64,000 bases of DNA from a plasmid. Below the pieces are notes generated by a model that saw only the letters and a list, made by a program, of their open reading frames with translations, was not told the DNA's origin and did no database searches. Position numbers and translations under genes: made by a program. Where the stretch lies: the sequence record NZ_CP094333.1; one strand, 5' to 3'. Shown piece by piece: positions 7,187-55,792 of the stretch (its first letter is position 1; every line of letters starts with the position of its first letter).

Positions 7187-7219
7187 GGCCGCGCCGGATT
7201 CTGGCGCGGCCTTTTTTTT
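7187..7219. terminator. Bidirectional rho-independent terminator between convergent trbC and nikB
   Basis: ggccgcgccggattctggcgcggcc hairpin followed by T8. Confidence 0.6.
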
Positions 7220-9917
7220 AACCTGGAGAAGGCGGTTCCCAGCGTTTATCCTGCTCCGGCGGAGGCAGTGATGCGTCATCGTTGCTGTTCGCCGCGATAT
7301 AATCGCGGTAGTAGCGTTCACTTCCTTCACGGTGATGATCCACGTCCGGTCGCGTAATCCTGTAGTCTTCGTGACCGGTACGGCCTGTCACATTATGCCA
7401 GGCAACCATTTCAGCAAAGACCTGGTTAAATTGTTTGTCGTTTCCTTCTGGTTCAAAACCCATGCGTGGATCACGCCCGAATAATACCGGTGCAATCAAA
7501 TCCAGTTTATCTGCCAGCGCATTGCGGTCATGGTGATTACGGAAAACAACCCTGTCACCATAATCCGTACAGACAAACTCTCCCGTCCGACGGTCACGGA
7601 AACGAACACTCCCGTTCTTCTGCAGACGGGCCTCGAGATCACCGGTATTACCGTATACCGGCGTTCCGCCCGGTTCACAAAGCACGACACAGCGGTCTGT
7701 CGTCGTTGTGCGTGACCTGTCTTTACGGCGATCGCGATAATCCCAGCCTCTCAGCTGCGATACAGCAGCCCTGTCTCCCTGAGCAGCCTGAATTTCGACC
7801 CACTGACGGTAAGAGGGTGGATACCATTTCCCATCAGCAATAAGTTTCTGTCGCTCATCCCTGATGTCTTCTTTCAGCCTGATCAATGCCTGCATTCGCT
7901 GAACTTCTGCAATGTGATAATGCAGCTTACGTAATGCCGGATCATCGTACTGCGCACGAATGTGTGACTTCCGCAGACGGCATGCCTGATGAATTTCCCG
8001 ACAACGTTCCCCATAACGCAGATCTGGTTTACGCCATTGTTCACGCCATGCCAGATAGCGGGCACGCAGGTCAGCACGGGCCTCAGCTCTGGCTTCACGT
8101 CGCTGCCGGCGCAGCATTGGGTCACGTTTACTGCTGACCCCGTACCTGTCACTGACAGCCAGCTCCGGGTTATAGCGACTTTCAGGTTGCACCCTGTCAA
8201 ACAAATCTGCTGGGGCACTCACAAAAGGTCCGGCCTGTGGCTCTGCACGCCCCAGTGTCAGATCAGGATGAATGCTGCTGGCCTTCACCGGCGTTTGCTC
8301 ATGATTAAAGGCATCAACGACAACAAGCCCGTGATGTTGTTTCTGTAGCATCAGTCCCTGTTGTGCAAACAGCTCATGACAACGCTGCCAGGTAAACTCA
8401 CCCTGTGTGATCATTTCTTCAATCTGAGGGCTACAATGGCTGATGCTGTATCCCCACAGACTTTCTTTGTCAGAAAACAGTTCGCGTTTGATAGCCCCCT
8501 GCGGCCCCGTGCCTGTACGCATACGGTGCCATTCTTTATCGGTCGCAGGACAGCTCTCCATACGACGACCACGGAAGCGTTCTGTTGGCGTAACCTGGCG
8601 GAAAATATCTGTTGGTACAGGCTGCCAGCCACCATCGAGTTGATTCACATTGTCGAGCGTCAGCAGCGACCATACGCTGTCAGCACGAACGGGAGTCTGG
8701 TTATGATCATAACCGTCACAGATAACCAGGTGACCATGCTGAACACGCATCCATAATCCCGCTTCAGCCAGTGTGCGGTGAATAGCCTGGCAGTTTTCCA
8801 GCCGTCCTTCCCGTGCCATTTCCGGCAGACGTTCTCCAAGATGACGACAGGCATACTGCTGCAGACTTTCTGTTTCAGCGATTTTTTCCGGGCGAACATC
8901 AGCGGCAATGAAGTCCGGATTATAGCGTCCTGGTGCTTCCACCTGGCTGAAAATGTCTTTTGGTACTGGCGTGTAGTCACCCATTTTTTTCATGAGTTTT
9001 TCTGCACACCAGGAGGGACCAAACGAGTCAAGCTGTACACCTTCCCTGTTGCGATCCCAGCCATCCATCACCAGAAATTTTCCGTCCATCTGAGACAGGT
9101 ACAGACCATCTTCCGCAAGACGACGATGCAGGGATAACCAATCATTTACAGGTTCACTGCGTAAACCAGCGACCGCTGTCTGCGCGACATACTCGCGAAA
9201 AGTTTGTTTTTTTCCGCGTGTCCAAGCGTTCTGGCGATCACGTTCAACGGCAGTTTTGCGAACGATACGATTTCCCGGCGCATGGACCCAGCAACCGTTA
9301 TCCGGAGCAAAACCATGCTTCAGTTCAAGCTCACGGCAGGCACGGCTGAGTTTTTCCTGACTCCATGAAAGGCAATTGAGATAACCTGTAACCGGATGTA
9401 CCCGGTTGACCGCAACGTGAACATGCAGGTTATCAGTATCGGTATGTACGGCAGAAACATACTGATGTTCACCCAGCCCGAGGGATTTCAGGGTATGGCG
9501 TACACTGTCATAAATCTGTTCCGGACGCGGGCTTTCATGGGCCTGCCAGGAAAGAATGTAGTGAAAAACAGGATCAGTATTATCTTTCGCATAGTGTGCC
9601 TGCTGTGCAATGTACTCCATATCTGCAGCGGCAGTTTCAAGAGATGTACAGTTGTGAAAACAGGTCACACCATAAAAGTTAACCCATTCGCAGCCGTCCT
9701 TCATGACATCAACCAGCGCCACGAATGACTCATTTCGAAGACGTGTCGCATAATCAACAAGGCGACTGAAACGGCTTCGGTGCGGTTGTTCAGCCTGCGA
9801 AGAAGAAGATAAATCCAGTTCCTCATCGGTCATGTCATCCCGGACAGAGACGTAGGATACCAGGTCTTCGAACGAAGACTTGCCGTCCCTTCTCTTTTTC
9901 GGAATGACTGCATTCAC
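7218..9917 (-). CDS. nikB: NikB relaxase (MOBP type)
   Basis: 899 aa, the same length and N-terminus as R64 NikB. Lies next to nikA and oriT. Confidence 0.9.
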   Translation of the reverse strand: MNAVIPKKRRDGKSSFEDLVSYVSVRDDMTDEELDLSSSSQAEQPHRSRFSRLVDYATRLRNESFVALVDVMKDGCEWVNFYGVTCFHNCTSLETAAADMEYIAQQAHYAKDNTDPVFHYILSWQAHESPRPEQIYDSVRHTLKSLGLGEHQYVSAVHTDTDNLHVHVAVNRVHPVTGYLNCLSWSQEKLSRACRELELKHGFAPDNGCWVHAPGNRIVRKTAVERDRQNAWTRGKKQTFREYVAQTAVAGLRSEPVNDWLSLHRRLAEDGLYLSQMDGKFLVMDGWDRNREGVQLDSFGPSWCAEKLMKKMGDYTPVPKDIFSQVEAPGRYNPDFIAADVRPEKIAETESLQQYACRHLGERLPEMAREGRLENCQAIHRTLAEAGLWMRVQHGHLVICDGYDHNQTPVRADSVWSLLTLDNVNQLDGGWQPVPTDIFRQVTPTERFRGRRMESCPATDKEWHRMRTGTGPQGAIKRELFSDKESLWGYSISHCSPQIEEMITQGEFTWQRCHELFAQQGLMLQKQHHGLVVVDAFNHEQTPVKASSIHPDLTLGRAEPQAGPFVSAPADLFDRVQPESRYNPELAVSDRYGVSSKRDPMLRRQRREARAEARADLRARYLAWREQWRKPDLRYGERCREIHQACRLRKSHIRAQYDDPALRKLHYHIAEVQRMQALIRLKEDIRDERQKLIADGKWYPPSYRQWVEIQAAQGDRAAVSQLRGWDYRDRRKDRSRTTTTDRCVVLCEPGGTPVYGNTGDLEARLQKNGSVRFRDRRTGEFVCTDYGDRVVFRNHHDRNALADKLDLIAPVLFGRDPRMGFEPEGNDKQFNQVFAEMVAWHNVTGRTGHEDYRITRPDVDHHREGSERYYRDYIAANSNDDASLPPPEQDKRWEPPSPG

Positions 9918-9927
9918 CGGAGAATCC

Positions 9928-10260
9928 TCAACCTTCCATTAACTGTTTACGCAATGTATTTGTAAGTTCGGTTATGGCAACAAGTACTTCTGCGTATTCC
10001 TTGTCACCGGTTCTTTTTCCCTGAACAAACAGATGCTTCTGCATCCTTCCCAGTCTCATTAACTCCTTCAGAAAAGCATCATCTGTACGGGAGTTAATTC
10101 GCTTATTCAGTGCTGCATTTCGGATGTAAGCAGATACAGTAAGTCCGGAATCTTCAGCTTTTTTCCTGATGGTTTCATCCTCAACAGGAGAGAATCTGAG
10201 TGTCCTGACAACTGTCTTTTGCCGTACCTCACTTTTCTTTCTTACCGCACTATCACTCAC
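9928..10260 (-). CDS. nikA: NikA, a ribbon-helix-helix oriT-binding relaxosome accessory protein
   Basis: 110 aa, located between nikB and the oriT inverted repeat. Confidence 0.85.
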   Translation of the reverse strand: MSDSAVRKKSEVRQKTVVRTLRFSPVEDETIRKKAEDSGLTVSAYIRNAALNKRINSRTDDAFLKELMRLGRMQKHLFVQGKRTGDKEYAEVLVAITELTNTLRKQLMEG

Positions 10261-11799: not shown

Positions 11800-12200
11800 C
11801 AGGTCATTTCCCGGAGGAGCGAAGCTCCTTCTGCCGTCCGGGTCTTCGGGGATTTCCCCGCAGTGGACCTTTCCGACGGGGGACGCTCACCACGTCACGG
11901 GGCAGTTGTCCGGGGGCAGACGCAAAAGTTTTTGACGCCTGCGGCAAAAAGTTTTGTGGCTGGTACATCTCTCCCCTGGACGACTGAAACGGGATGTGGT
12001 CATGTATGTACCCCCGGAAAGTCCGTCTGCGGAGAACAGGCCGCAGTGCGGCGGCAGACAGGCAGAGACAGCTGCGCCATCAGGCGCAGTGGCCTTACAC
12101 ACCGTAAGGTGTGCAGGGAGCGCCGCATACGGCGCGACTGAAGAAAAACGACGGCACAACAATGGCATGTGGTGGTCACTGGCACACCACTCCCGCACAG
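11800..12200. promoter_or_regulatory. Frpo/ssi-like single-strand promoter repeat, copy 1
   Basis: GC-rich structured block (ggagcgaagctccttctgccgtcc...cgcagtggacctttccga...ctgcgccatcaggcgcagtggccttacacaccgt). It recurs at 14665-15345 and 26385-26893. Confidence 0.55.
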
Positions 12201-14664: not shown

Positions 14665-15345
14665 CCGACCGGTTGCTCCCCGGAGGGGCGAAAGCCCCTT
14701 CTGCCGTCCACTTCTTCGGGGTTTCTCCCCGCAGTGGACCTTTCCGATGGGGCGTCCGTCACCACGTCACGGGGCAGCTGTCCGGGGGCGGACGCAAAAT
14801 TTTTTGCCGGGTTTATGGCTAAAAATTTTGTGGACGGTATATCTTCCCCTGGACTGCTGAAACGGGATGTGGTTACTCCAGCCCCCGGAAAGTCCACAGC
14901 GGGAAACAGGCCGCAGGGGTGGCGGCGGAAGGGTTGACTGCGCCATCAGGCGCAGTGGCCTTACACACCGTCAGGTGTGCAGGGAGCGCCGTTTCCGGCG
15001 CGACAGGGGCGGCGCGACCGGAACGGTCGCTGCAAGCCTGGTTTTTCAGACATCGGACCGTAGCGGCAGCCCGAAACCGCGCCAGCGGGTTCGGCGGAGA
15101 CTGGCGGGTGCGCCAGCAGCTGCCTGTCGGAGTCGGGCCTGACGACCGGATGCCGCCAGGCAGCCGGGAGCCGAAGGTGTCCCCGCCTCCGGAAATCAGA
15201 ACAACAGAAACGACATAACAGAAAAATGCCTCACACCATGACGGGCAGGAAGGGCAGCGCCGCAGGCGCGGCCCTCCTGCATTTCAGGCAGGCGTAAGCC
15301 TGCCAGGGTTTTCCGGCGGCCTGGCAGGCCATACCCCCGCCGGAG
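14665..15345. promoter_or_regulatory. Frpo/ssi-like single-strand promoter repeat, copy 2
   Basis: Shares long identical blocks with copies 1 and 3. Confidence 0.55.
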
Positions 15346-20914: not shown

Positions 20915-21060
20915 GTAGGGTAGGGTACGTGTGGTCTTTCAAGATAAATGGCGAATATGTCCTGCTTATCTTGAGTTAGATCACCGTTACCCCCCCTCCG
21001 AACCGTACGTGCACCTTTCAATGCATACGGCTCTCCATTGCTAGCTTATTGGGGATAAAC

Positions 21061-22962
21061 TCATTTAGCAGAATCCCCACTTGAGACAGGTGGTTGCAGG
21101 AGTATTCTTCCCTTTTCCTGTCTCAGATCGGGTAGTTTTCCGCTATGTAACTTGTCGTGGCAACTTGCGCACAAAATCATCGTTTTCCGGCGGCGTGCGA
21201 TCATCATTAGTTGCCACAGGCTGGGTTTATATCCGGCCTTACGACCTTTCTTCAGGTCTTTTAGCTTTCTGACATGATGTACTTCGCAGCGCCCAGTCTT
21301 CGCACAATACTCGCAGATCCTTGCCCCTAATCGACGCATGATCTCTGTTGTGCGGGTTGTGATATGTGCGGTTCTCGGTTCCGTATCGACAATCGTTGTT
21401 CGGTTGCGATTGACATGTTTGAGTTTGAAAACCTCAATCTTTCGGGATCCATTTTTGGCCTGAACGGTAATAGCCAGATCTCCATTATTTTGCCGTAGCG
21501 ATTTGGCGACTTTATTCACTGAACTACGTCGTTTATTCGCTAGGGTCTTAAAAAGGCTTATTTGCCATATGAAATATAATTTTGATAATTTATATTTCAT
21601 GTCCAGCGCCAGACTGTAGTAGTTCGCCAATCCGCGCATTTCCGCGTTGAAAGTCAGAACAATTTCAGCTTCACTGAGATTTTGTAGACTTGAACGATGT
21701 ACAGCCTTCACATTCTCATAACAGCCATATTTCTTTTGGTGACAAAATTTAGCGGCTATATTGTCAGGAACGAAGAGCTGCACAATTCCTGTGGTGGATC
21801 TCCGGAGAGCGTGCCGCCCTTGCATTTTCTGCTTCAGCAATTTCTTTGCATCTGCCTGTCTGATTTCATAGCCTAAAAAATTAACTCCTTCTGAGATATG
21901 GCGGATCCTGGTCTTTGCTTCATTAACTTCCAATCCCAGTGAAGTAGTAATAAAGTTTCTGACCTGTCTTGATATATGTTCAGCATCTTTCTTCGAGCCG
22001 ATGACACCAATTACGAAGTCATCAGCATATCGAACATAGTACATACGCCTGAAGTTTGGATCGTTCATGACCTGAGATGGTATAGAACGTTTTTCTTCAA
22101 GCAGTCGTTCAATTTCTTTCTTTATGGCTTCTTTTTCTGATTCAGAATCAGTTGCCATACCGTCTACTTTCTTTCGTAGTTTATGAATCTTATGGGCCAG
22201 CCTGTTCATATCTGGATTCGCTCTTCGTTTTGTACCGCTTGTATATGCAGGAATTAAGTTCTGTTCTACAAAACGGTCCAGTTTGTCGAGGTATATATTT
22301 GCCAGTAAGGGAGAAATTATCCCACCTTGTGGCGTGCCAGAATATGAGCGATGGTATTTCCAATTGTCCACATATCCTGCCTTCAGCCACTGTTCGATTA
22401 ATTTCAGGAAATTCTTATCCTTAATTTTCTCTGCCAGTGTATTCAGCAATAGTTTGTGGGGGATATTGTCAAAGAAACCTTTGATATCAACATCCACGAT
22501 CCATTTAACTCCGTTCCAGACTGGACGAATAGATCTGAGCGCAGTTTCACACGAACGTTTTGGTCTGAATCCATGAGAGTGTTCAGAGAATACTGGTTCA
22601 TAAACCCTTTCCAGAATAATTCTTGCTACTTCTTGCGCCAGTTTATCGTCTCCACCTGGAATCCCCAGCGGTCTGGTTTTTCCGTCCTTTTTTGGGATCT
22701 GAACTCTGCGTACAGGTTTCGCTACGTATTCTCTACTCCGCAATGTTTTTGCCAGCTTCTCTGCTCTTTCGATAGAGAAGCCATCAATGGTATCTGTTGA
22801 TACACCTTGAGTCAGTGCACCTGCATTGGCCCGTATATTCACGTAGGCTTGCAGCCACAGTCCGGGCTCACACGCAATTTTGTATAGATTACGTACTGGA
22901 TACCCTTTTTTTGAAGCATCCTCAATTCCATCTAATCTTTTCTCAAGTTCATCAGGCAGCAT
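21061..22962 (-). CDS. ltrA: Group II intron reverse transcriptase/maturase with C-terminal HNH endonuclease (LtrA-like)
   Basis: 633 aa. RT motifs (RPLGIP; YVRYADDFVIGV) and HNH (CEYC...HHV...CASCH). Confidence 0.9.
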   Translation of the reverse strand: MLPDELEKRLDGIEDASKKGYPVRNLYKIACEPGLWLQAYVNIRANAGALTQGVSTDTIDGFSIERAEKLAKTLRSREYVAKPVRRVQIPKKDGKTRPLGIPGGDDKLAQEVARIILERVYEPVFSEHSHGFRPKRSCETALRSIRPVWNGVKWIVDVDIKGFFDNIPHKLLLNTLAEKIKDKNFLKLIEQWLKAGYVDNWKYHRSYSGTPQGGIISPLLANIYLDKLDRFVEQNLIPAYTSGTKRRANPDMNRLAHKIHKLRKKVDGMATDSESEKEAIKKEIERLLEEKRSIPSQVMNDPNFRRMYYVRYADDFVIGVIGSKKDAEHISRQVRNFITTSLGLEVNEAKTRIRHISEGVNFLGYEIRQADAKKLLKQKMQGRHALRRSTTGIVQLFVPDNIAAKFCHQKKYGCYENVKAVHRSSLQNLSEAEIVLTFNAEMRGLANYYSLALDMKYKLSKLYFIWQISLFKTLANKRRSSVNKVAKSLRQNNGDLAITVQAKNGSRKIEVFKLKHVNRNRTTIVDTEPRTAHITTRTTEIMRRLGARICEYCAKTGRCEVHHVRKLKDLKKGRKAGYKPSLWQLMMIARRRKTMILCASCHDKLHSGKLPDLRQEKGRILLQPPVSSGDSAK

Positions 22963-23455
22963 TGGCTAACCCTCCTCTTAGAGATTGATGTATCTAACAA
23001 CTGTCTCCCTTCCCCGCAGCACTGTGAGGCTTTCATCTCCCTTCCGGTTGATTTATACCTTTGCTGCTTCCGTATAATGCGGACTGCCGTAGCCCATTAC
23101 AGGCCGACCTTGAGTACTATGGAGACTCCGCTACCATGCTGGGTATAAATCCAGTTTAGGTAGTCCCGTAGTTTCACGGTGTGGAGATGCGATGTACTTA
23201 GGATGTCTTTCGATCGTTTAACTATTTCATCAATAGCTGGCCCGTTAGAGTGGTCACAATCAACGTAGGGCGGATTTCTTGTGCTATTACGGGAATAACG
23301 CTTCAATCGTTCTGCGTTATTGGTTTCCTGTTTCCCACATAGATCTCGACTTCAACAAACCCAGTTTATCCATATACATCTTGCATTGAGTGGTGATACT
23401 TAGTAACCGGCTCATTTAAACCGTCTGGTCTGTTTCCTCCGGCTCTACAAAAATA

Positions 23456-24133
23456 ATGTCCATCATTTTTAATGGACACTATCGTATGAAACACCGGACC
23501 TGGATCACTGAAGCTTTACGTCTTCACTTTGAAGAACATTTACCCCGGGTTGTGGCCGGGCGTCGCCTGGGTGTACCAAAATCAACAGTTTGTAGTATGT
23601 TCGTGCGCTTTCGGAGAGCTGGCCTTTCGTGGCCTTTGCCCGCAGGCATGTCGGAGCAGGAACTTGATGCCTGCCTTTACGGACAATTTTCCACGGTACC
23701 AGTCGTACGTCCTGAAAGCACCGTTATATCCGAAGCCCCCATGGTAAAAAAACGTCCCCGGCGGCCCAACTTCCCTTATGAGTTTAAAATCGCCTTAGTG
23801 GAGCAGTCACTGCAGCCCGGAGCCTGTGTGGCGCAGATCGCCCGGGAAAACGGAATCAACGATAACCTGCTCTTCAACTGGCGCCATCAATACCGGAAAG
23901 GTGGCCTGCTGCCTTCCGGAAAAAATATGCCGGCACTGCTTCCCGTGACGTTAACGCCGGAGCCGGATAATAAAATCCCGGCCCCCGCACAGGAACCAGA
24001 GCAGATAAATACACCGTCCGACAGTCTGTGTTGTGAGCTGGTTCTGCCGGCCGGAACTCTCAGGCTTAAAGGTAAACTGACGCCGGCGTTATTACAGACA
24101 CTTATCCGCGAAATAAAAGGGAGCAGCCACTGA
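23456..24133 (+). CDS. tnpA: IS66-family accessory protein TnpA (Orf1)
   Basis: First ORF of the IS66 layout. Confidence 0.8.
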   Translation: MSIIFNGHYRMKHRTWITEALRLHFEEHLPRVVAGRRLGVPKSTVCSMFVRFRRAGLSWPLPAGMSEQELDACLYGQFSTVPVVRPESTVISEAPMVKKRPRRPNFPYEFKIALVEQSLQPGACVAQIARENGINDNLLFNWRHQYRKGGLLPSGKNMPALLPVTLTPEPDNKIPAPAQEPEQINTPSDSLCCELVLPAGTLRLKGKLTPALLQTLIREIKGSSH

Positions 24134-24480
24134 TGATATCTCTCCCTGCAGGTTCGCGTATCTGGCTGGTTGCAGGTATCACCGATATGCGAAATGGCTT
24201 TAACGGCCTGGCATCAAAAGTTCAGAACGTCCTGAAGGATGACCCGTTCTCCGGACACCTGTTCATCTTCCGCGGACGCCGGGGTGACCAGATAAAAGTG
24301 TTGTGGGCTGACAGTGACGGACTGTGCCTCTTCACCAAACGCCTGGAGCGGGGCCGCTTCGTCTGGCCAGTCACCCGTGACGGCAAGGTGCACCTTACTC
24401 CGGCTCAGTTATCCATGCTTCTTGAAGGTATCAACTGGAAGCACCCGAAACGAACGGAACGCGCTGGAATCCGCATATAA
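24133..24480 (+). CDS. tnpB: IS66-family TnpB (Orf2)
   Basis: 115 aa, start overlaps tnpA stop (ATGA), conserved IS66 Orf2. Confidence 0.85.
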   Translation: MISLPAGSRIWLVAGITDMRNGFNGLASKVQNVLKDDPFSGHLFIFRGRRGDQIKVLWADSDGLCLFTKRLERGRFVWPVTRDGKVHLTPAQLSMLLEGINWKHPKRTERAGIRI

Positions 24481-24499
24481 CCCGTTGTAAAGTGAGGAT

Positions 24500-26071
24500 A
24501 TGGACACCTCACTTGCTCATGAGAACGCCCGCCTGCGGGCACTGTTGCAGACGCAACAGGACACCATCCGCCAGATGGCTGAATACAACCGCCTGCTCTC
24601 ACAGCGGGTGGCGGCTTATGCTTCCGAAATCAACCGGCTGAAGGCGCTGGTTGCGAAACTGCAACGTATGCAGTTCGGTAAAAGCTCAGAAAAACTTCGT
24701 GCAAAAACCGAACGGCAGATACAGGAAGCACAGGAGCGAATCAGCGCACTTCAGGAAGAAATGGCGGAAACGCTGGGTGAGCAATATGACCCGGTACTGC
24801 CATCCGCCCTGCGCCAGTCTTCAGCCCGTAAACCGTTACCGGCCTCACTTCCCCGTGAAACCCGGGTTATCCGGCCGGAAGAGGAATGCTGTCCTGCCTG
24901 TGGTGGTGAACTCAGTTCTCTGGGATGTGATGTGTCAGAGCAACTGGAGCTTATCAGCAGCGCCTTTAAGGTTATCGAAACACAACGTCCGAAACAGGCC
25001 TGTTGCCGGTGCGACCATATCGTGCAGGCACCAGTACCTTCAAAACCCATTGCACGCAGTTATGCCGGAGCGGGGCTTCTGGCCCATGTTGTCACCGGGA
25101 AATATGCAGACCATCTGCCGTTATACCGCCAGTCAGAAATATACCGTCGTCAGGGAGTGGAGCTGAGCCGTGCCACACTGGGGCGCTGGACAGGTGCTGT
25201 TGCTGAACTGCTGGAGCCGCTGTATGACGTCCTGCGCCAGTATGTGCTGATGCCCGGTAAAGTCCATGCTGATGATATCCCCGTCCCGGTCCAGGAGCCG
25301 GGCAGCGGTAAAACCCGGACAGCCCGGCTGTGGGTCTACGTCCGTGATGACCGTAACGCCGGTTCACAGATGCCCCCGGCGGTCTGGTTCGCGTACAGTC
25401 CGGACCGGAAAGGTATCCATCCACAAAATCACCTGGCCGGTTACAGCGGTGTGCTTCAGGCCGATGCTTACGGTGGTTACCGGGCGTTATACGAATCCGG
25501 CAGAATAACGGAAGCCGCGTGTATGGCTCATGCCCGGAGAAAAATCCACGATGTGCATGCAAGAGCGCCCACCTACATCACCACGGAAGCCCTGCAGCGT
25601 ATCGGTGAACTGTATGCCATCGAGGCAGAGGTCCGGGGCTGTTCAGCAGAACAGCGTCTGGCGGCAAGAAAAGCCAGAGCCGCGCCACTGATGCAGTCAC
25701 TGTATGACTGGATACAGCAACAGATGAAAACACTGTCGCGTCACTCAGATACGGCAAAAGCGTTCGCATACCTGCTGAAACAGTGGGATGCACTGAACGT
25801 GTACTGCAGTAATGGCTGGGTGGAAATCGACAACAACATCGCAGAGAACGCCTTACGGGGAGTGGCCGTAGGCCGGAAAAACTGGATGTTCGCGGGTTCC
25901 GACAGCGGTGGTGAACATGCGGCGGTGTTGTACTCGCTGATCGGCACATGCCGTCTGAACAATGTGGAGCCAGAAAAGTGGCTGCGTTACGTCATTGAAC
26001 ATATCCAGGACTGGCCGGCAAACCGGGTACGCGATCTGTTGCCCTGGAAAGTTGATCTGAGCTCTCAGTAA
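24500..26071 (+). CDS. tnpC: IS66-family DDE transposase TnpC
   Basis: 523 aa with N-terminal leucine-zipper-like coiled coil and a CxxC zinc-finger region. Confidence 0.9.
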
Positions 26072-26282
26072 ATATCAATACGGTTCTGACGAGTCGCTTA
26101 CGATACTTATAACGATTTCCGTATTCACCACCCTTTTCTGTGGATGCTATGTTCACCTCTCCTTTTCAGGATCTCCGAGCCTGTTACCAAGCGAGGCTAA
26201 CCACAGTATGCAATGGCTATACCACTAAGCCATGTTGCTTTTCATGCAACACTCCATAAAACACCGCGCTTCAACGGCGCAC

Positions 26283-26321
26283 CCCGACGAGGATGACCTT
26301 GTTGATACCACGTGCACTCAT
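26283..26321 (-). CDS. ssb: Plasmid SSB, exon 1 (MSARGINKVILVG)
   Basis: RBS ggagg 6 nt upstream, then ATG AGT GCA CGT GGT ATC AAC AAG GTC ATC CTC GTC GGG, followed by intron GTGCG. Confidence 0.75.
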
Positions 26322-26384
26322 AAGAACCTCCTGACTGAAAGATGTGAGATAAACCGGATACCGGCGACGGGACGTTCATGTGCC

Positions 26385-26893
26385 CCTTCAGAGGAGCGAA
26401 AGCTCCTCCTGCCGTCCACTTCACAGGGGTTTCTCCCCGCAGTGGACCTTTCCGATGGGGGCCCGTTTACCGCCTCACGGGACAGCTGCCCGGGGGCGGA
26501 CGCAAAATTTTTAGCCGGGTTCATGGCTAAAAATTTTGTGGCCGGTGCATCTCACCCTGGACAGATGGAACGGGAGGGGGTTACGTCTGCCCCCCGGAAA
26601 GTCCACAGCGGGAAACAGGCCGCAGGGGTGGCGGCAGGAGGGAAGACTGCTGCGCCATCAGGCGCAGTTTCCTCACACACCGTCAGGTGTGCAGGGAGCG
26701 CAGGTCACGGCGCGACAGGGGCGGCGCGACCGGAACGGTCGCTGCAAGCCGGGTTTTCACGCATCGGACCGTAGCGGCAGCCCGAAACCGCGCCAGCGGG
26801 TTCGGCGGAGACTGGCGGGTGCGCCAGCAGCTGCCTGTCGGAGTCGGGCCTGACGACCGGATGCCGCCAGGCAGCCGGGAGCCGAAGTGGGCG
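26385..26893. promoter_or_regulatory. Frpo/ssi-like repeat, copy 3, upstream of ssb. Its tail resumes at ~29239-29430 after intron 2
   Basis: Shares long identical blocks with copies 1 and 2. The homology breaks at 26893 and resumes after the intron. Confidence 0.55.
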
Positions 26894-29237
26894 GTGCGAC
26901 AGGAAGTCGCTTAACGTATTGTTTTACATTGATAAAACCAGCTATCCCATTAGCTGTAGCCTACCGGGACAGGCGCTGCCGGCAACGGCGGGGTCTGAAG
27001 CTCCCGGGACAACGAGAGCCGGGCGTCAGCCCGGGTAAAGCCCCGTGAGGGGCTTTACCTTGCTGCAAGCATCATGTGGCAGGAGAGCAAGGCTGGTCAG
27101 AAGGGTTAACACATGTGAACTGTTGATAAACACCGTTATCGGCAACAGGCCAAAGATGCTGACAGGCCTGAACCAAAAGGTACGGGGTCCGGTTGCTACC
27201 TCGCGCACAGGGAGCACATGGGCGCAGAGACCCCCGGTGAAGAGACAGAACCCGCCCTGACCCTCTGTATGTTAAGCGGAACCTGGTAAACCCGTATCGC
27301 TGCCTTACAGGCAGGTGAACCGTAAGGAACACTGTAGGCGGTGCGGGCAGAGGAGGACGGAAAAAGCAAATGCCCGGTTGTAATGACCGGGATACGGGGC
27401 AGGTTCCCCGACGCGAAAGCGGGCAGACTTCCGTCTGGTCTTTAATTGCATGAAAAGCTGTAAAGCAGTCAAAAGGATATCAGCGAGATGAATACACACA
27501 TCAGTGTGTCCACGATACCCCACCCGACAGGCTGGCACACCATAGACTGGAAAGCATGCCATGCCCGGGTGCGAAAGCTACAGTTACGGATTGCAAAGGC
27601 AACCCGACAGCAACAATGGCGGCAGGTCAGAGAACTACAGCGCATCCTCACCCGCTCATTCTCCGGCAAAGCCGTGGCTGTCAGGCGTGTAACTGAAAAT
27701 ACCGGTAAAAGGACACCCGGTATTGACGGAAAAATATGGCACACACCGAAGGAGAAATGGGAAGGAATATGCAGCCTGAATCTGTGTGGTTACAGGCCAC
27801 AGCCACTACGGCGAATACATATCCCAAAATCAAACGGCAAAACGCGACCGCTGGGCATACCCACAATGAGGGACCGGGCCATGCAGGCACTGTGGCTGCT
27901 GGCTCTGGAACCCGTATCCGAGACCACTGCTGACCATAACAGCTATGGTTTCAGACCAATGCGCAGCACGCATGACGCCATTGAGTCCATTTTTCTGCGG
28001 ATGAGCCAGAAAGTATCGCCCAAATGGATACTGGAGGGCGATATTAAAGGGTGTTTCGATAACATCAGCCATGACTGGCTGCTTTCCCATATTCCGATGG
28101 ACAGGAGACTGCTTAAAAAATGGTTGAAAGCAGGTTACATGGAAAGAGGCGTGTTTAACCATACGAACAGCGGGACACCGCAGGGAGGCATCATATCCCC
28201 TGTTCTCGCCAACATGGCTCTGGACGGACTGGAGAAGGAACTGATGCAAACGTTCAGGAAAAGTGGTTATCACAGTGCAAAGCACCAGGTGAATTATGTG
28301 AGATATGCTGATGATTTCATCTGTTCAGGCAGCTCCCGTGAATTGCTGGAAAATGAGGTCAGACCACTGATTGCAGCTTTCATGCGCGAACGAGGGCTGG
28401 AACTGTCGGAAGAAAAAACCGCGATTACACATATAGATAAAGGCTTCGACTTTTTAGGGCAGAACGTCAGGAAGTACAACGGTAAAATGCTGATTAAACC
28501 GTCGAAGAAAAACCTGAAGAACTTCCTCTGTAAAGTCAGAGAAATAATTAAACGCAATCCGACGCTCCCGGCATGGAAACTGATAGGCCAGCTAAACCCG
28601 GTAATCCGGGGATGGGCTACCTATCACCGACACGTCGTGGCGAAAGAAACATTTAATTATGTCGACACCCAAATCTGGCGAGCTATATGGCGATGGTGTG
28701 TAAGAAGGCACCCCCGAAAAGGATTGCGGTGGATCGCCGGACGATACTTCTCCTTTGAAGGCAGGCGCTGGATCTTTAAAGCCATAACCCCGGAAGGGAA
28801 AATTCTGACTCTCTTCCGGGCAATGGAAACACCGATAAAGCGCCATATAAAAATCAAAGGCGAAGCAACACCATACACCCCCGGAATGGAAATCTACTTT
28901 GAACGTCGTCTGGATCTAATCTGGAAAGGCAAATCAAAGAAGATGAAGACAGTAGTTCAACTCTGGAAGAGGCAGGGGAAACACTGTCCGCAGTGCGGAC
29001 AACCCATAACCAACCAGACCGGATGGAATATACATCACCGGATCAGGAAAGTTATGGGCGGCAGTGACGAACTGACCAATCTCGAGTTGTTACATCCGAA
29101 CTGCCACCGACAGTTACACAGCAGGGAAGCCGGTGCTCACCGAAAGCACTTATAAAGGCTTGAGCGGAGTGCGGGGAAACTCGCACGCTCCGTTCTTAGG
29201 GGGCGGCGGCGCAGCAATGTGCCGCTGCTACCCGACC
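26894..29237 (+). mobile_element. Second group II intron (different lineage) inserted within Frpo-like copy 3
   Basis: 5' GTGCGAC at 26894. RT ORF 27488-29155. Domain V GAGCGGAGTGCGGGGAAACTCGCACGCTCCGTTC at 29162-29195. Domain VI hairpin with a bulged A at 29230. The 3' end is approximate. Confidence 0.7.
27488..29155 (+). CDS. Group II intron reverse transcriptase/maturase/HNH endonuclease (555 aa)
   Basis: RT motifs (RPLGIPTMRDR; YVRYADDF) and C-terminal HNH (CPQCG...HH...HPNCH). Confidence 0.9.
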   Translation: MNTHISVSTIPHPTGWHTIDWKACHARVRKLQLRIAKATRQQQWRQVRELQRILTRSFSGKAVAVRRVTENTGKRTPGIDGKIWHTPKEKWEGICSLNLCGYRPQPLRRIHIPKSNGKTRPLGIPTMRDRAMQALWLLALEPVSETTADHNSYGFRPMRSTHDAIESIFLRMSQKVSPKWILEGDIKGCFDNISHDWLLSHIPMDRRLLKKWLKAGYMERGVFNHTNSGTPQGGIISPVLANMALDGLEKELMQTFRKSGYHSAKHQVNYVRYADDFICSGSSRELLENEVRPLIAAFMRERGLELSEEKTAITHIDKGFDFLGQNVRKYNGKMLIKPSKKNLKNFLCKVREIIKRNPTLPAWKLIGQLNPVIRGWATYHRHVVAKETFNYVDTQIWRAIWRWCVRRHPRKGLRWIAGRYFSFEGRRWIFKAITPEGKILTLFRAMETPIKRHIKIKGEATPYTPGMEIYFERRLDLIWKGKSKKMKTVVQLWKRQGKHCPQCGQPITNQTGWNIHHRIRKVMGGSDELTNLELLHPNCHRQLHSREAGAHRKHL

Positions 29238-29432
29238 AATAAAAGACAGCCAGAAACGGTGACAGTGTCACGGAATATCACACCTGTTCCCTGCATACAG
29301 CCATACACTACCTTCTGACCGGAAAGCCGGGCCGGCAGCGCCGCAGGCGCTGCACCCCGCATTTCCGGCAGGCGTCAGCCTGCCAGGGGTTTTCGCGCGG
29401 GCTGACAGGCGGCCTCCACCGCCTGCCCTGTA

Positions 29433-29624
29433 TCACCTGTTTCTGCTGCCCTGAAGGATATAGTGACCACCGAGGAAAACCGCCTGCTGATTCGCCACAA
29501 AATCGCAGATTTCATCAACAATCTGCGCAGTGGTGAGCGGTTTCTGCCCCATTTCACGACGCCGCGCATTAATCACGGCTTTGTAATTGCGCAGAATTTC
29601 GCGGGTTTCTGTGCTGATATTCAT
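29433..29624 (-). CDS. Hypothetical small protein (63 aa), translationally coupled to the upstream gene
   Basis: ATGA start/stop overlap with the 29621-30043 gene. RBS ggag. Confidence 0.4.
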   Translation of the reverse strand: MNISTETREILRNYKAVINARRREMGQKPLTTAQIVDEICDFVANQQAVFLGGHYILQGSRNR

Positions 29625-30043
29625 GACATGTGCTCCCCGTCCAGCGCCTGTAACACAACGTCCATTGCTTCGCGTTCTTCCCTGACGAACGCATCACCGT
29701 CGCCCCCGTTCTCACTCCCGACGGCATACAGGCGCTTCATTTCACTGCCTGCCAGCGCCAACACTTTTTCCAGCATCACCGCCGGGACTGTCACCTGACG
29801 GCTGGCGCGCTTTTCTTCCATCAGTTCACGAACAACGTCGTGAACAACGCTGACATCCGCACCATGCTCAAAGGCATCGTCCAGCCGCTGCATGACAGTT
29901 TCCAGCTCATCGTCTGTCAGACTCCAGTCCTGGGCTATGTGACGCACATCCCCACGGGTCAGCACCACGGCAAAAACGCATTCACTGTCCGGCACGTCTG
30001 TATCCAGCACTTCGCGGATAATTTCTTTAACAGTACAGTACAT
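29621..30043 (-). CDS. Acidic leading-region protein (DUF1380-like), paralogue of 31749-32183
   Basis: 140 aa, same architecture as the 144-aa paralogue. Confidence 0.5.
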   Translation of the reverse strand: MYCTVKEIIREVLDTDVPDSECVFAVVLTRGDVRHIAQDWSLTDDELETVMQRLDDAFEHGADVSVVHDVVRELMEEKRASRQVTVPAVMLEKVLALAGSEMKRLYAVGSENGGDGDAFVREEREAMDVVLQALDGEHMS

Positions 30044-55150: not shown

Positions 55151-55648
55151 TTAGCCGTTTCGACGCGCATAAACGGAGTGGGTGTACGGAATTACAGCTT
55201 GAATGGTTTCGGTTGAGACAAGCTCGAATTCTGTTTCGTTGAGCATTGGGAAGAAGGCGTCACCCTCGAAGGTTTGATGTACCTCAGATAGAAACACGCC
55301 GTGGGCGTGAGGTAGTGCCAGAGTGTATATCTCAGCTCCGCCCGCGACGTAGAGTTCATTGCCGAGTTCGGATGCCAAAGCGATAGCGTGCGACAGCGTT
55401 GAAACAACTACGCAGCCAGTGGCGCGGTAGTTAGCTTGGCGTGAGATTACCAATGTGTGACGGTTCGGTAGAGGCTTGCCGATAGACTCAAAGGTCTTTC
55501 GCCCCATGACAACGACTTTTCCCTCAGTGAGTCTGCGAAAAATCTTCTGCTCACCCGGAATTTTCCAGGGGATATTAGGACCATTGCCAATAACCCGATT
55601 GGCTCCCATCGCAGCAACGAGATAAATGCGTACTGATTCCGAGTTCAT
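55151..55648 (-). CDS. dfrA12: DfrA12 trimethoprim-resistant dihydrofolate reductase cassette
   Basis: MNSESVRIYLVAAMGANRVIGNGPNIPWKIPGEQKIFRRLTEGK..., 165 aa. Confidence 0.9.
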   Translation of the reverse strand: MNSESVRIYLVAAMGANRVIGNGPNIPWKIPGEQKIFRRLTEGKVVVMGRKTFESIGKPLPNRHTLVISRQANYRATGCVVVSTLSHAIALASELGNELYVAGGAEIYTLALPHAHGVFLSEVHQTFEGDAFFPMLNETEFELVSTETIQAVIPYTHSVYARRNG

Positions 55649-55792
55649 ATGGCTAACTTTGTTTTAGGGCGACTGCCCTGCTGCGTAACATCGTTGCTGC
55701 TCCATAACATCAAACATCGACCCACGGCGTAACGCGCTTGCTGCTTGGATGCCCGAGGCATAGACTGTACAAAAAAACAGTCATAACAAGCC
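55649..55792. other. attI1 recombination site and Pc/P2 promoter region of a class 1 integron
   Basis: GTTAGCC core after dfrA12 and the region up to the intI1 ATG. Confidence 0.7.

Follow-up and report, generated by a model that had tools for sequence, protein, structure and literature searches.

A group II intron beside Frpo3

The DNA analysed here is a stretch of 64,000 nucleotides (nt) from the plasmid record NZ_CP094333.1 (hereafter the window), which represents a ColIb-P9-like IncI1 plasmid. Three dispersed repeats in the window are the ColIb-P9 elements Frpo1, Frpo2 and Frpo3 (ssi), each with approximately 99% identity (the ColIb-P9 Frpo sequences are listed in Supplementary file 4 of PMC11541004). 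Frpo3 lies directly upstream of exon 1 of ssb, a minus-strand gene that carries an intron of its own; on its other side is a complete group II intron of 2,343 base pairs (bp), the subject of this report. The features of the locus are collected in Table 1.

Table 1. Features of the intron locus and related elements in the window. EBS and IBS, exon- and intron-binding sites; aa, amino acids; a slash marks an insertion point. L002 and L003 are IncI plasmids with an empty site; L006 and L007 are plasmids with related introns.
Feature	Position	Strand	Basis
Complete group II intron	26894-29236	+	Empty sites L002/L003; Rfam RF02012 and RF00029; 100% identical plasmid copies
Domain I core	26938-27087	+	Rfam group-II-D1D4-7
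EBS2a (U, 27136) and EBS2 (AUCGGC, 27138-27143)	27136-27143	+	EcI5 EBS2 column; covariation in four introns
EBS1 hairpin loop UCGCGCACA; EBS1 = GCGCAC at 27203-27208	27201-27209	+	Homologous loop in L006/L007; pairing at IncF and ectopic sites
Intron-encoded protein, 555 aa; RVT_N, RVT_1, GIIM, HNH	27488-29155	+	Pfam; NCBIfam TIGR04416; PDB 6ME0_C; EcI5 protein
Domain V (29162-29195) and domain VI with branch-point A (29230)	29162-29236	+	Rfam RF00029
5' exon target: IBS2a A (26880), IBS2 GCCGAA (26881-26886), IBS1 TGGGCG (26888-26893)	26880-26893	+	Pairing; empty sites
3' exon, IBS3 = C at 29237; variable tail of the preceding leading-region operon	29237-29430	+	Abuts 26893 in empty sites
Frpo3/ssi3 single-strand promoter, directly upstream of ssb exon 1	26388-26718	+	99.1% identity over 331 nt to AJ238399:11381-11711
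Conserved flank module carrying the 5'-exon recognition sequence of the intron	26719-26887	+	Comparison with copy 2; precedes the intron in IncF too
Frpo2 (14681-15006) plus flank; unoccupied paralogous site ...GCCGAAGGTGTCC/CCGCC	14681-15176	+	
Frpo1, without flank module	11812-12140	+	Homology to copy 3 stops with the Frpo core
LtrA-like intron (mitochondrial-like lineage) between ssb codons 13 and 14, sense to ssb	20915-26282	-	Intact ssb of L002 contiguous over 20914/26283

The boundaries of the intron were defined by comparison with three IncI plasmids in which the site is empty (L002, L003 and L004): the match to the window ends at 26893 and restarts at 29237. In L002 and L003 the matched parts (509 and 194 nt) make up the whole of the 703-nt empty site; the junction is unambiguous, and the target is not duplicated. 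The intron begins with GTGCGAC and ends with CTACCCGAC (final letters CCCGAC), and it thus has the conserved group II ends (5' GUGYG, 3' AY) as well as a precise insertion relative to an uninterrupted allele. An intron starting with GTGCGAC had been placed here in the original prediction from a break in homology between copies of the repeat, and it is present almost exactly where it was proposed. The break at 26893 was exact, and the point of resumption, given as about 29239, is 29237 in the orthologous empty sites. The open reading frames (ORFs) that cross the insertion site ('yffB' and a '77-aa ORF') occur on both strands and are rich in Arg, Pro and Ala; we judge them to be probably spurious.

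The RNA is of type IIB1, with a chloroplast-like-1 (CL1) type protein. Rfam model RF02012 (group-II-D1D4-7) matches domain I over its full length (model positions 1-151) with 119.7 bits and E=1e-24. RF00029, also matched in full, covers 29160-29236 with 60.1 bits (gathering score 40) and stops exactly at the 3' boundary. Its alignment contains the AGC triad of domain V and places the bulged branch-point A of domain VI seventh from the 3' end, the final base of the intron being 29236. Both the domain V sequence and a bulged A about 7 nt from the 3' end had been read correctly from the sequence.

The 555-aa reverse transcriptase (RT)/maturase/HNH ORF in domain IV is likewise as first described. 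Its RVT_N, RVT_1, maturase (GIIM) and HNH domains all exceed the Pfam cut-offs, NCBIfam TIGR04416 matches it at 384.9 bits, and the YADD motif is intact (codons 28304-28315), so that the RT, maturase (X) and DNA-binding/endonuclease domains characteristic of a mobile intron are all found. The best PDB match is the T.el4h protein (6ME0_C; E=1e-178, residues 12-553 versus 19-555), with weaker matches to LtrA (6e-46) and the GsI-IIC RT (7e-41), and the protein is 56% identical to that of EcI5 from pO157. T.el4h/Th.e.I3 and EcI5 are both IIB1 introns with CL1 RTs (PMC8643678), and by these similarities the intron belongs to the CL1/IIB1 lineage. We considered identity with EcI5 and rejected it: domain I is approximately 70% identical, the proteins are 56% identical, and the targets differ. 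A name for the intron in the Zimmerly database was not found in the searchable literature. Two more CL1/IIB1 relatives were identified on enterobacterial plasmids, L006 (pSTEC299_1) and L007 (pCFSAN029843_1); one of them sits at the end of an IS66 tnpB gene; the other, oriented like psiB/psiA, adjoins hok in a leading region.

Target recognition at the edge of the Frpo flank

The original prediction located the intron inside the Frpo/ssi-like repeat upstream of ssb. The intron does lie in the repeat unit upstream of ssb; it is not within the 326-331-nt Frpo element, since it starts 176 nt beyond the end of Frpo3, in a flank common to copies 2 and 3. This flank is better conserved than the hairpins. 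The copy-2 and copy-3 flanks (15007-15176 and 26719-26887) are identical at 166 of 170 positions (98%), including an exact run of 126 nt (26762-26887), compared with only 286 of 331 positions (86%) for the Frpo2 and Frpo3 cores. Such conservation beyond the hairpins suggests either gene conversion or strong constraint on an element located there. Homology to copy 1 ends at the Frpo core. Copies 2 and 3 part 6 nt before the junction, after 26887 (GAAGGTGTCC in copy 2 versus GAAGTGGGCG in copy 3), and become only weakly similar again from approximately 29300. The proposed restoration of copy-2 homology across the intron is therefore not seen, and it is the orthologous empty sites, rather than the alignment of the repeat copies, that provide clean proof of the insertion and its exact position.

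No known RNA was found in the flank module in an Rfam search of 26050-29700 at a permissive E-value, and no repeat family was detected between 18 and 36 kb with a 40-nt minimum match; the Frpo copies carry indels and were seen only by BLAST and MAFFT. Stretches similar to the flank module also appear among the 'Frpo-like' candidates in Supplementary file 4 of PMC11541004. For Frpo3 as single-stranded DNA (ssDNA), the predicted fold is an imperfect hairpin of considerable length (-96.9 kcal/mol, z = -8.8). A role of the Frpo palindrome as a mirror-image promoter in duplex DNA found no support, as its hexamers match poorly.

The module also precedes the intron in IncF plasmids, where most copies of the intron are found. 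In IncF plasmid NZ_CP020519.1 of E. coli strain 222 (L016 and L015), a single leading region contains three identical copies; all of them point the same way, and each has its start exactly 231 nt past an ssiD-like element. The homing site can best be regarded as the distal end of a recurring cassette made up of Frpo and its flank. The ssb gene of NZ_CP020519.1 carries the same LtrA-like intron as that of the window, indicating that the two-intron arrangement is recurrent in such leading regions and not peculiar to the window plasmid.

To place the EBS elements, domain I was aligned with those of EcI5 and the plasmid relatives L006 and L007. EBS2 (AUCGGC, intron positions 245-250) occupies the same column as ACCAG at 253-257 of EcI5, which is followed by A258 (the EcI5 position is as stated in PMC8643678). 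This column complements the exon from -13 to -9 or -8 in each of the four introns and covaries with IBS2. In the window, AUCGGC forms five Watson-Crick pairs with GCCGAA and has an A.A mismatch at -8, a pattern like that of EcI5. The U of EBS2a, two nt upstream of EBS2, is opposite the A of IBS2a at -14; both pairings with the 5' exon are those of a IIB1 intron. EBS1 is presented in a 9-nt hairpin loop (intron 308-316), and the homologous loops of L006 and L007, in the same register, pair with their own exons at six of six positions. An alternative EBS1 candidate, CGCCC at intron 360-364 (five Watson-Crick pairs with GGGCG), was rejected because it aligns to a conserved non-EBS segment in the relatives.

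At the IncF site (...GAGCCGAAG GTGCGC/CCGGC), IBS1 is the perfect complement of EBS1 GCGCAC (six of six pairs). The same recognition sequence recurs at three ectopic sites in E. coli chromosomes (L011, L012 and L013), located at the 3' end of rfbK (GAGCCGGTGGTGCGT/C), within a gene for a neutral zinc metallopeptidase (GAGCCGAAAGTTCGT/C), and inside gntU in the antisense direction (AAGCCGAGGGTGCCT/C). The gntU copy is 2,342 bp in length and has a variant EBS1 loop (...CTGGACACG...). All three sites keep A(-14), GCCG(A/G)N, a GTGCGY-like IBS1 and C(+1), with near-perfect EBS1 pairing, and position +1 (IBS3) is C at each of the seven sites read. Because the ectopic sites share this IBS2a-IBS2-IBS1-IBS3 motif, base pairing accounts for the targets, even those unrelated to conjugation or hairpins.

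These observations make it probable that the element is an active, site-specific mobile IIB1/CL1 intron, related to EcI5 and T.el4h, that homes by pairing to the Frpo-flank site. The homing site would be A-GCCGAA-G-GTGCGC/C, at the outer edge of the conserved module of approximately 170 nt found with Frpo/ssi promoters in the leading regions of IncF and IncI plasmids. The excised lariat, together with the RT/maturase/HNH protein, would recognise this target through EBS2a, EBS2, EBS1 and EBS3 pairing and through protein contacts further 5'. The lariat would then reverse-splice into the strand bearing the IBS sequences, the HNH domain would nick the opposite strand, and the RT would copy the intron by target-primed reverse transcription (TPRT); this pathway is taken from what is described for the family. 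Its most likely mode of movement is standard retrohoming, mediated by the ribonucleoprotein and dependent on the endonuclease, into a site that is conserved, repeated and non-coding. The intron may sit near Frpo because its target module recurs there and is strongly conserved over a large population of plasmids.

Several observations weigh against this interpretation. At the IncI site of the window (...GAGCCGAAG TGGGCG/CAATA), EBS1 pairs at only one of six positions in the canonical register. If the register is shifted 1 nt in the 5' direction (CGCGCAC with GTGGGCG, from 26887), six of seven positions pair, with a central G.G mismatch. The odd register is not a boundary artefact, as the IncI junction is unambiguous, and a purely pairing-driven model consequently does not fully explain the use of this site. 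The EBS3 nucleotide was not located in the coordination loop, and a promoter scan found no sigma-70-like promoter on the plus strand upstream of the intron. The CL1/IIB1 placement is one by best matches. The window site is the IncI (ColIb-P9-like) version of the target, a diverged one at which EBS1 pairs only in the 1-nt-shifted register. The expected complementarity between the EBS loops and the flanking sequence was borne out for EBS2 and EBS2a, and for EBS1 at the IncF sites, and was only partly so for EBS1 in the window.

Probable mobility of the intron and polarity of the insertion

The intron occurs in 1,067 PLSDB plasmid records (1,015 at at least 99% identity) and in 324 of 5,426 complete E. 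coli genomes, where it is present at 525 places on plasmids and 49 on chromosomes. A junction query made up of 30 exon nt and 200 intron nt matched 1,017 plasmid records; its coverage was at least 80% in 999 of these, and the exon was included in nearly all of the rows sampled. Approximately 130 PLSDB records in the class with at least 99% identity have the intron at the IncI site type of the window. The whole 3,046-bp region analysed here is 100% identical in many (IncI) plasmids, in which the ORF is annotated ltrA (WP_012372796.1).

Identity over the whole region is compatible with clonal spread of an occupied site, and the poor EBS1 pairing in the window raises the question of whether this copy is a passive passenger of the ssi3 region, carried along by descent or by homologous recombination among IncI plasmids and perhaps immobile. 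We regard this as quite unlikely. The intron is intact, it does not differ from the compared IncF and chromosomal copies in its EBS1 and EBS2 regions, and its 2,343 bp are 100% identical in other listed plasmid records. The filled IncI site equals the empty IncI site plus exactly the intron, and the exon ends differ from those of IncF, so the first insertion was intron-mediated rather than a recombinational import from IncF. Moreover, a fresh insertion at the IncI position has been recorded: PMC10104558 reports that, in two replicate lines, the IncI plasmid p15ESBL showed a new junction with the intron where p1ESBL carries it. In Dataset S3 of that study a disrupted yffB is followed by an LtrA homologue (modelled on chain C of 6ME0; reference CP026941.2), then by ssi3 and ssb. 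CP026941.2 is among the full-coverage matches to our intron; this order identifies the element as our intron at the window's site, apparently in the act of moving. Splicing and retrohoming activity is indirectly supported, fitting both these new junctions and the near-identical copies at multiple sites, including chromosomal ones; the fresh insertion itself is known from the literature only.

The position of the intron should cost the plasmid little. The insertion is antisense to the leading genes and upstream of an autonomous promoter, from which we infer that the site should be harmless. At a harmless site the intron can accumulate (up to three copies per plasmid) and move between co-resident plasmids, and where IncF and IncI plasmids share a cell it would be able to cross between the two families.

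The polarity of the insertion bears on another explanation. NikB (7218-9917) and NikA (9928-10260), both on the minus strand, place oriT at approximately 10.3 kb, with the leading region running rightward. From this position and the orientation of ssb, psiB and ardA, established IncI/IncF biology indicates that the plus strand is the transferred strand. The intron, on the plus strand, has its polarity, with ssb and the other leading genes on the minus strand. The original prediction suggested that retrohoming may prefer ssDNA or stem-loop targets in the leading region. On this view the intron would use the transferred strand as it enters at conjugation, and its cDNA would be primed by complementary-strand synthesis, which would account for its place beside single-strand promoters. 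In favour of it stands the polarity just described. All three copies in the IncF plasmid share the orientation of the deposited F ssiD strand, the flank is predicted to be strongly structured as a single strand, and the de novo insertion of PMC10104558 was seen in a strain with several conjugative plasmids.

We nevertheless consider a preference of this kind improbable. Orientation is set by the repeated module, so that the copies together carry the weight of one observation whose prior is 50%, and the relatives EcI5 (pO157, L005) and L007 are oriented the other way, along with the leading genes. The protein retains an HNH endonuclease, which is used by the double-stranded pathway, and the ectopic chromosomal sites have a sequence motif, not a structure, in common. 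In the predicted single-strand fold, IBS2 positions -12 to -10 are mostly paired (unpaired probability 0.07-0.21), as are IBS1 positions -4 to -2, so that clear exposure of the whole site is not evident; the site also lies 176-231 nt outside the Frpo hairpin. Finally, the ssb intron targets the other strand, and the transferred strand cannot explain both introns. EBS/IBS pairing explains the targets instead.

Hairpin or ssDNA targeting does have a precedent: class C (IIC) introns and those associated with attC recognise stem-loops in DNA, such as terminators and attC. IIC introns lack EBS2 and the endonuclease domain and insert just after a hairpin, whereas the window intron has EBS2, EBS2a, an HNH domain and a sequence-defined site and is not of the class C-like type. 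The site in the window does lie 10 nt 3' of a small predicted hairpin.

A broader form of the same idea, which we find similarly hard to favour, is that the lineage is specialised for the conjugative leading region, with a recognition sequence on the transferred strand adjacent to every Frpo/ssi promoter. Its ribonucleoproteins (RNPs), produced in a recipient or a co-resident cell, could invade the incoming single strand before conversion to duplex, with priming by complementary-strand synthesis. If this were true, conjugation itself would be the route for intron jumps between plasmid families, and the IncI site could do with relaxed, register-shifted EBS1 pairing, there being no duplex to melt.

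Least probable of all is that the intron or its RT has been co-opted for a plasmid role in the leading region, for example as an operon insulator or in establishment or anti-defence. The intron is very common in successful resistance plasmids and lies among anti-defence genes (ArdA, KlcA-like antirestriction, methylase). However, many closely related plasmids without it still transfer (PMC8765060), all its features are typical of standard mobile introns, its orientation is antisense to the genes expressed early, and we found no evidence for such a role. The reading that we prefer remains that of a mobile IIB1/CL1 intron homing to the Frpo-flank site.

Neighbouring features and known systems

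As proposed, the window contains a second intron of another lineage on the opposite strand, between codons of ssb. Its protein is LtrA-like (E=5e-119 to LtrA, 5G2X_C) with Intron_maturas2 and AI2M-like HNH domains, in contrast to the 6ME0_C-type protein studied here; identity between the two is 34% and limited to the RT core. The ssb intron is split by an IS66-family element (ISCro1-like; 23404-26101) with an 8-bp duplication (GATACTTA) and tnpA, tnpB and transposase genes at 23456-26071. Split in this manner, the ssb intron probably cannot splice, and the ssb gene of the window plasmid is therefore probably inactive. Elsewhere in the window, Rfam identifies two sok antisense RNAs of hok/sok-type loci (888-1045 and 2306-2463) and a class 1 integron attI/aminoglycoside leader motif (55625-55703), all on the minus strand.

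The intron is already known and is annotated in roughly a thousand enterobacterial plasmids. It is the same element as the intron of pHN7A8 and the FII-33 (F33:A-:B-) plasmids, with which it shares its length of 2,343 bp, 100% identical DNA encoding WP_012372796.1, and the same 5' exon module. The exons differ at their ends: the FII-33 exon ends in ...GAAGGTGCGC/CCGGC (perfect IBS1), and that of the IncI site in the window in ...GAAGTGGGCG/CAATA. PMC8765060 described the 2,343-bp group II intron of pHN7A8, used its presence or absence as a lineage marker, and found an uninterrupted site in 58 FII-33 plasmids; PMC6052338 and PMC10654068 mention the pHN7A8/FII-33 intron as well. These three papers place the marker 'in a 77-aa hypothetical ORF' or 'downstream of ycjA' and make no link to Frpo/ssi, and no paper relating the intron to Frpo/ssi was found in the searchable literature.

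EcI5 of E. coli pO157 (PMC8643678) resembles the window intron in domain architecture, in the EBS2 column and its pairing pattern, in the EBS2a(U)-IBS2a(A) pair at -14, and in its location in a plasmid leading region. It has another target and site, between sopB and a DUF1281 gene, and its sense is that of the leading genes, opposite to the polarity of the window intron; the two are distinct introns and not variants of one. EcI5 is a model retrohoming system and is efficient into double-stranded plasmid targets (PMC8643678). Its domain I (L005, intron approximately 30-55) contains an insertion, GGAGTTCGATTCCGTC, that is absent from the other three relatives and tRNA T-arm-like; the insertion is also complementary to EcI5's own IBS1 (TCGAAT).

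The best match of solved structure, T.el4h/Th.e.I3 of Thermosynechococcus (PDB 6ME0, 6MEC), is an RNP caught reverse-splicing into DNA and serves as a structural model for EBS2a/IBS2a and DNA recognition, but it is cyanobacterial and thermophilic and has unrelated target sites. With respect to ColIb-P9 ssi1-3 and F Frpo (ssiD), the Frpo1-3 copies of the window are these elements, and the intron is no part of them.

As an intron, then, the element is nothing new: it is routinely annotated as ltrA and already serves as a lineage marker for FII-33 resistance plasmids. What the present analysis adds is context for which we found no statement in the papers. The intron homes to the outer edge of a conserved cassette accompanying Frpo/ssi promoters, one plasmid can have all three of its cassettes filled, the polarity of the intron is always that of the transferred strand, and the IncI form of the site is used even though EBS1 pairs with it in a non-canonical manner. 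This is relevant mainly for plasmid typing by intron markers and for group II specialists who study the tolerance of these introns with respect to their target sites.

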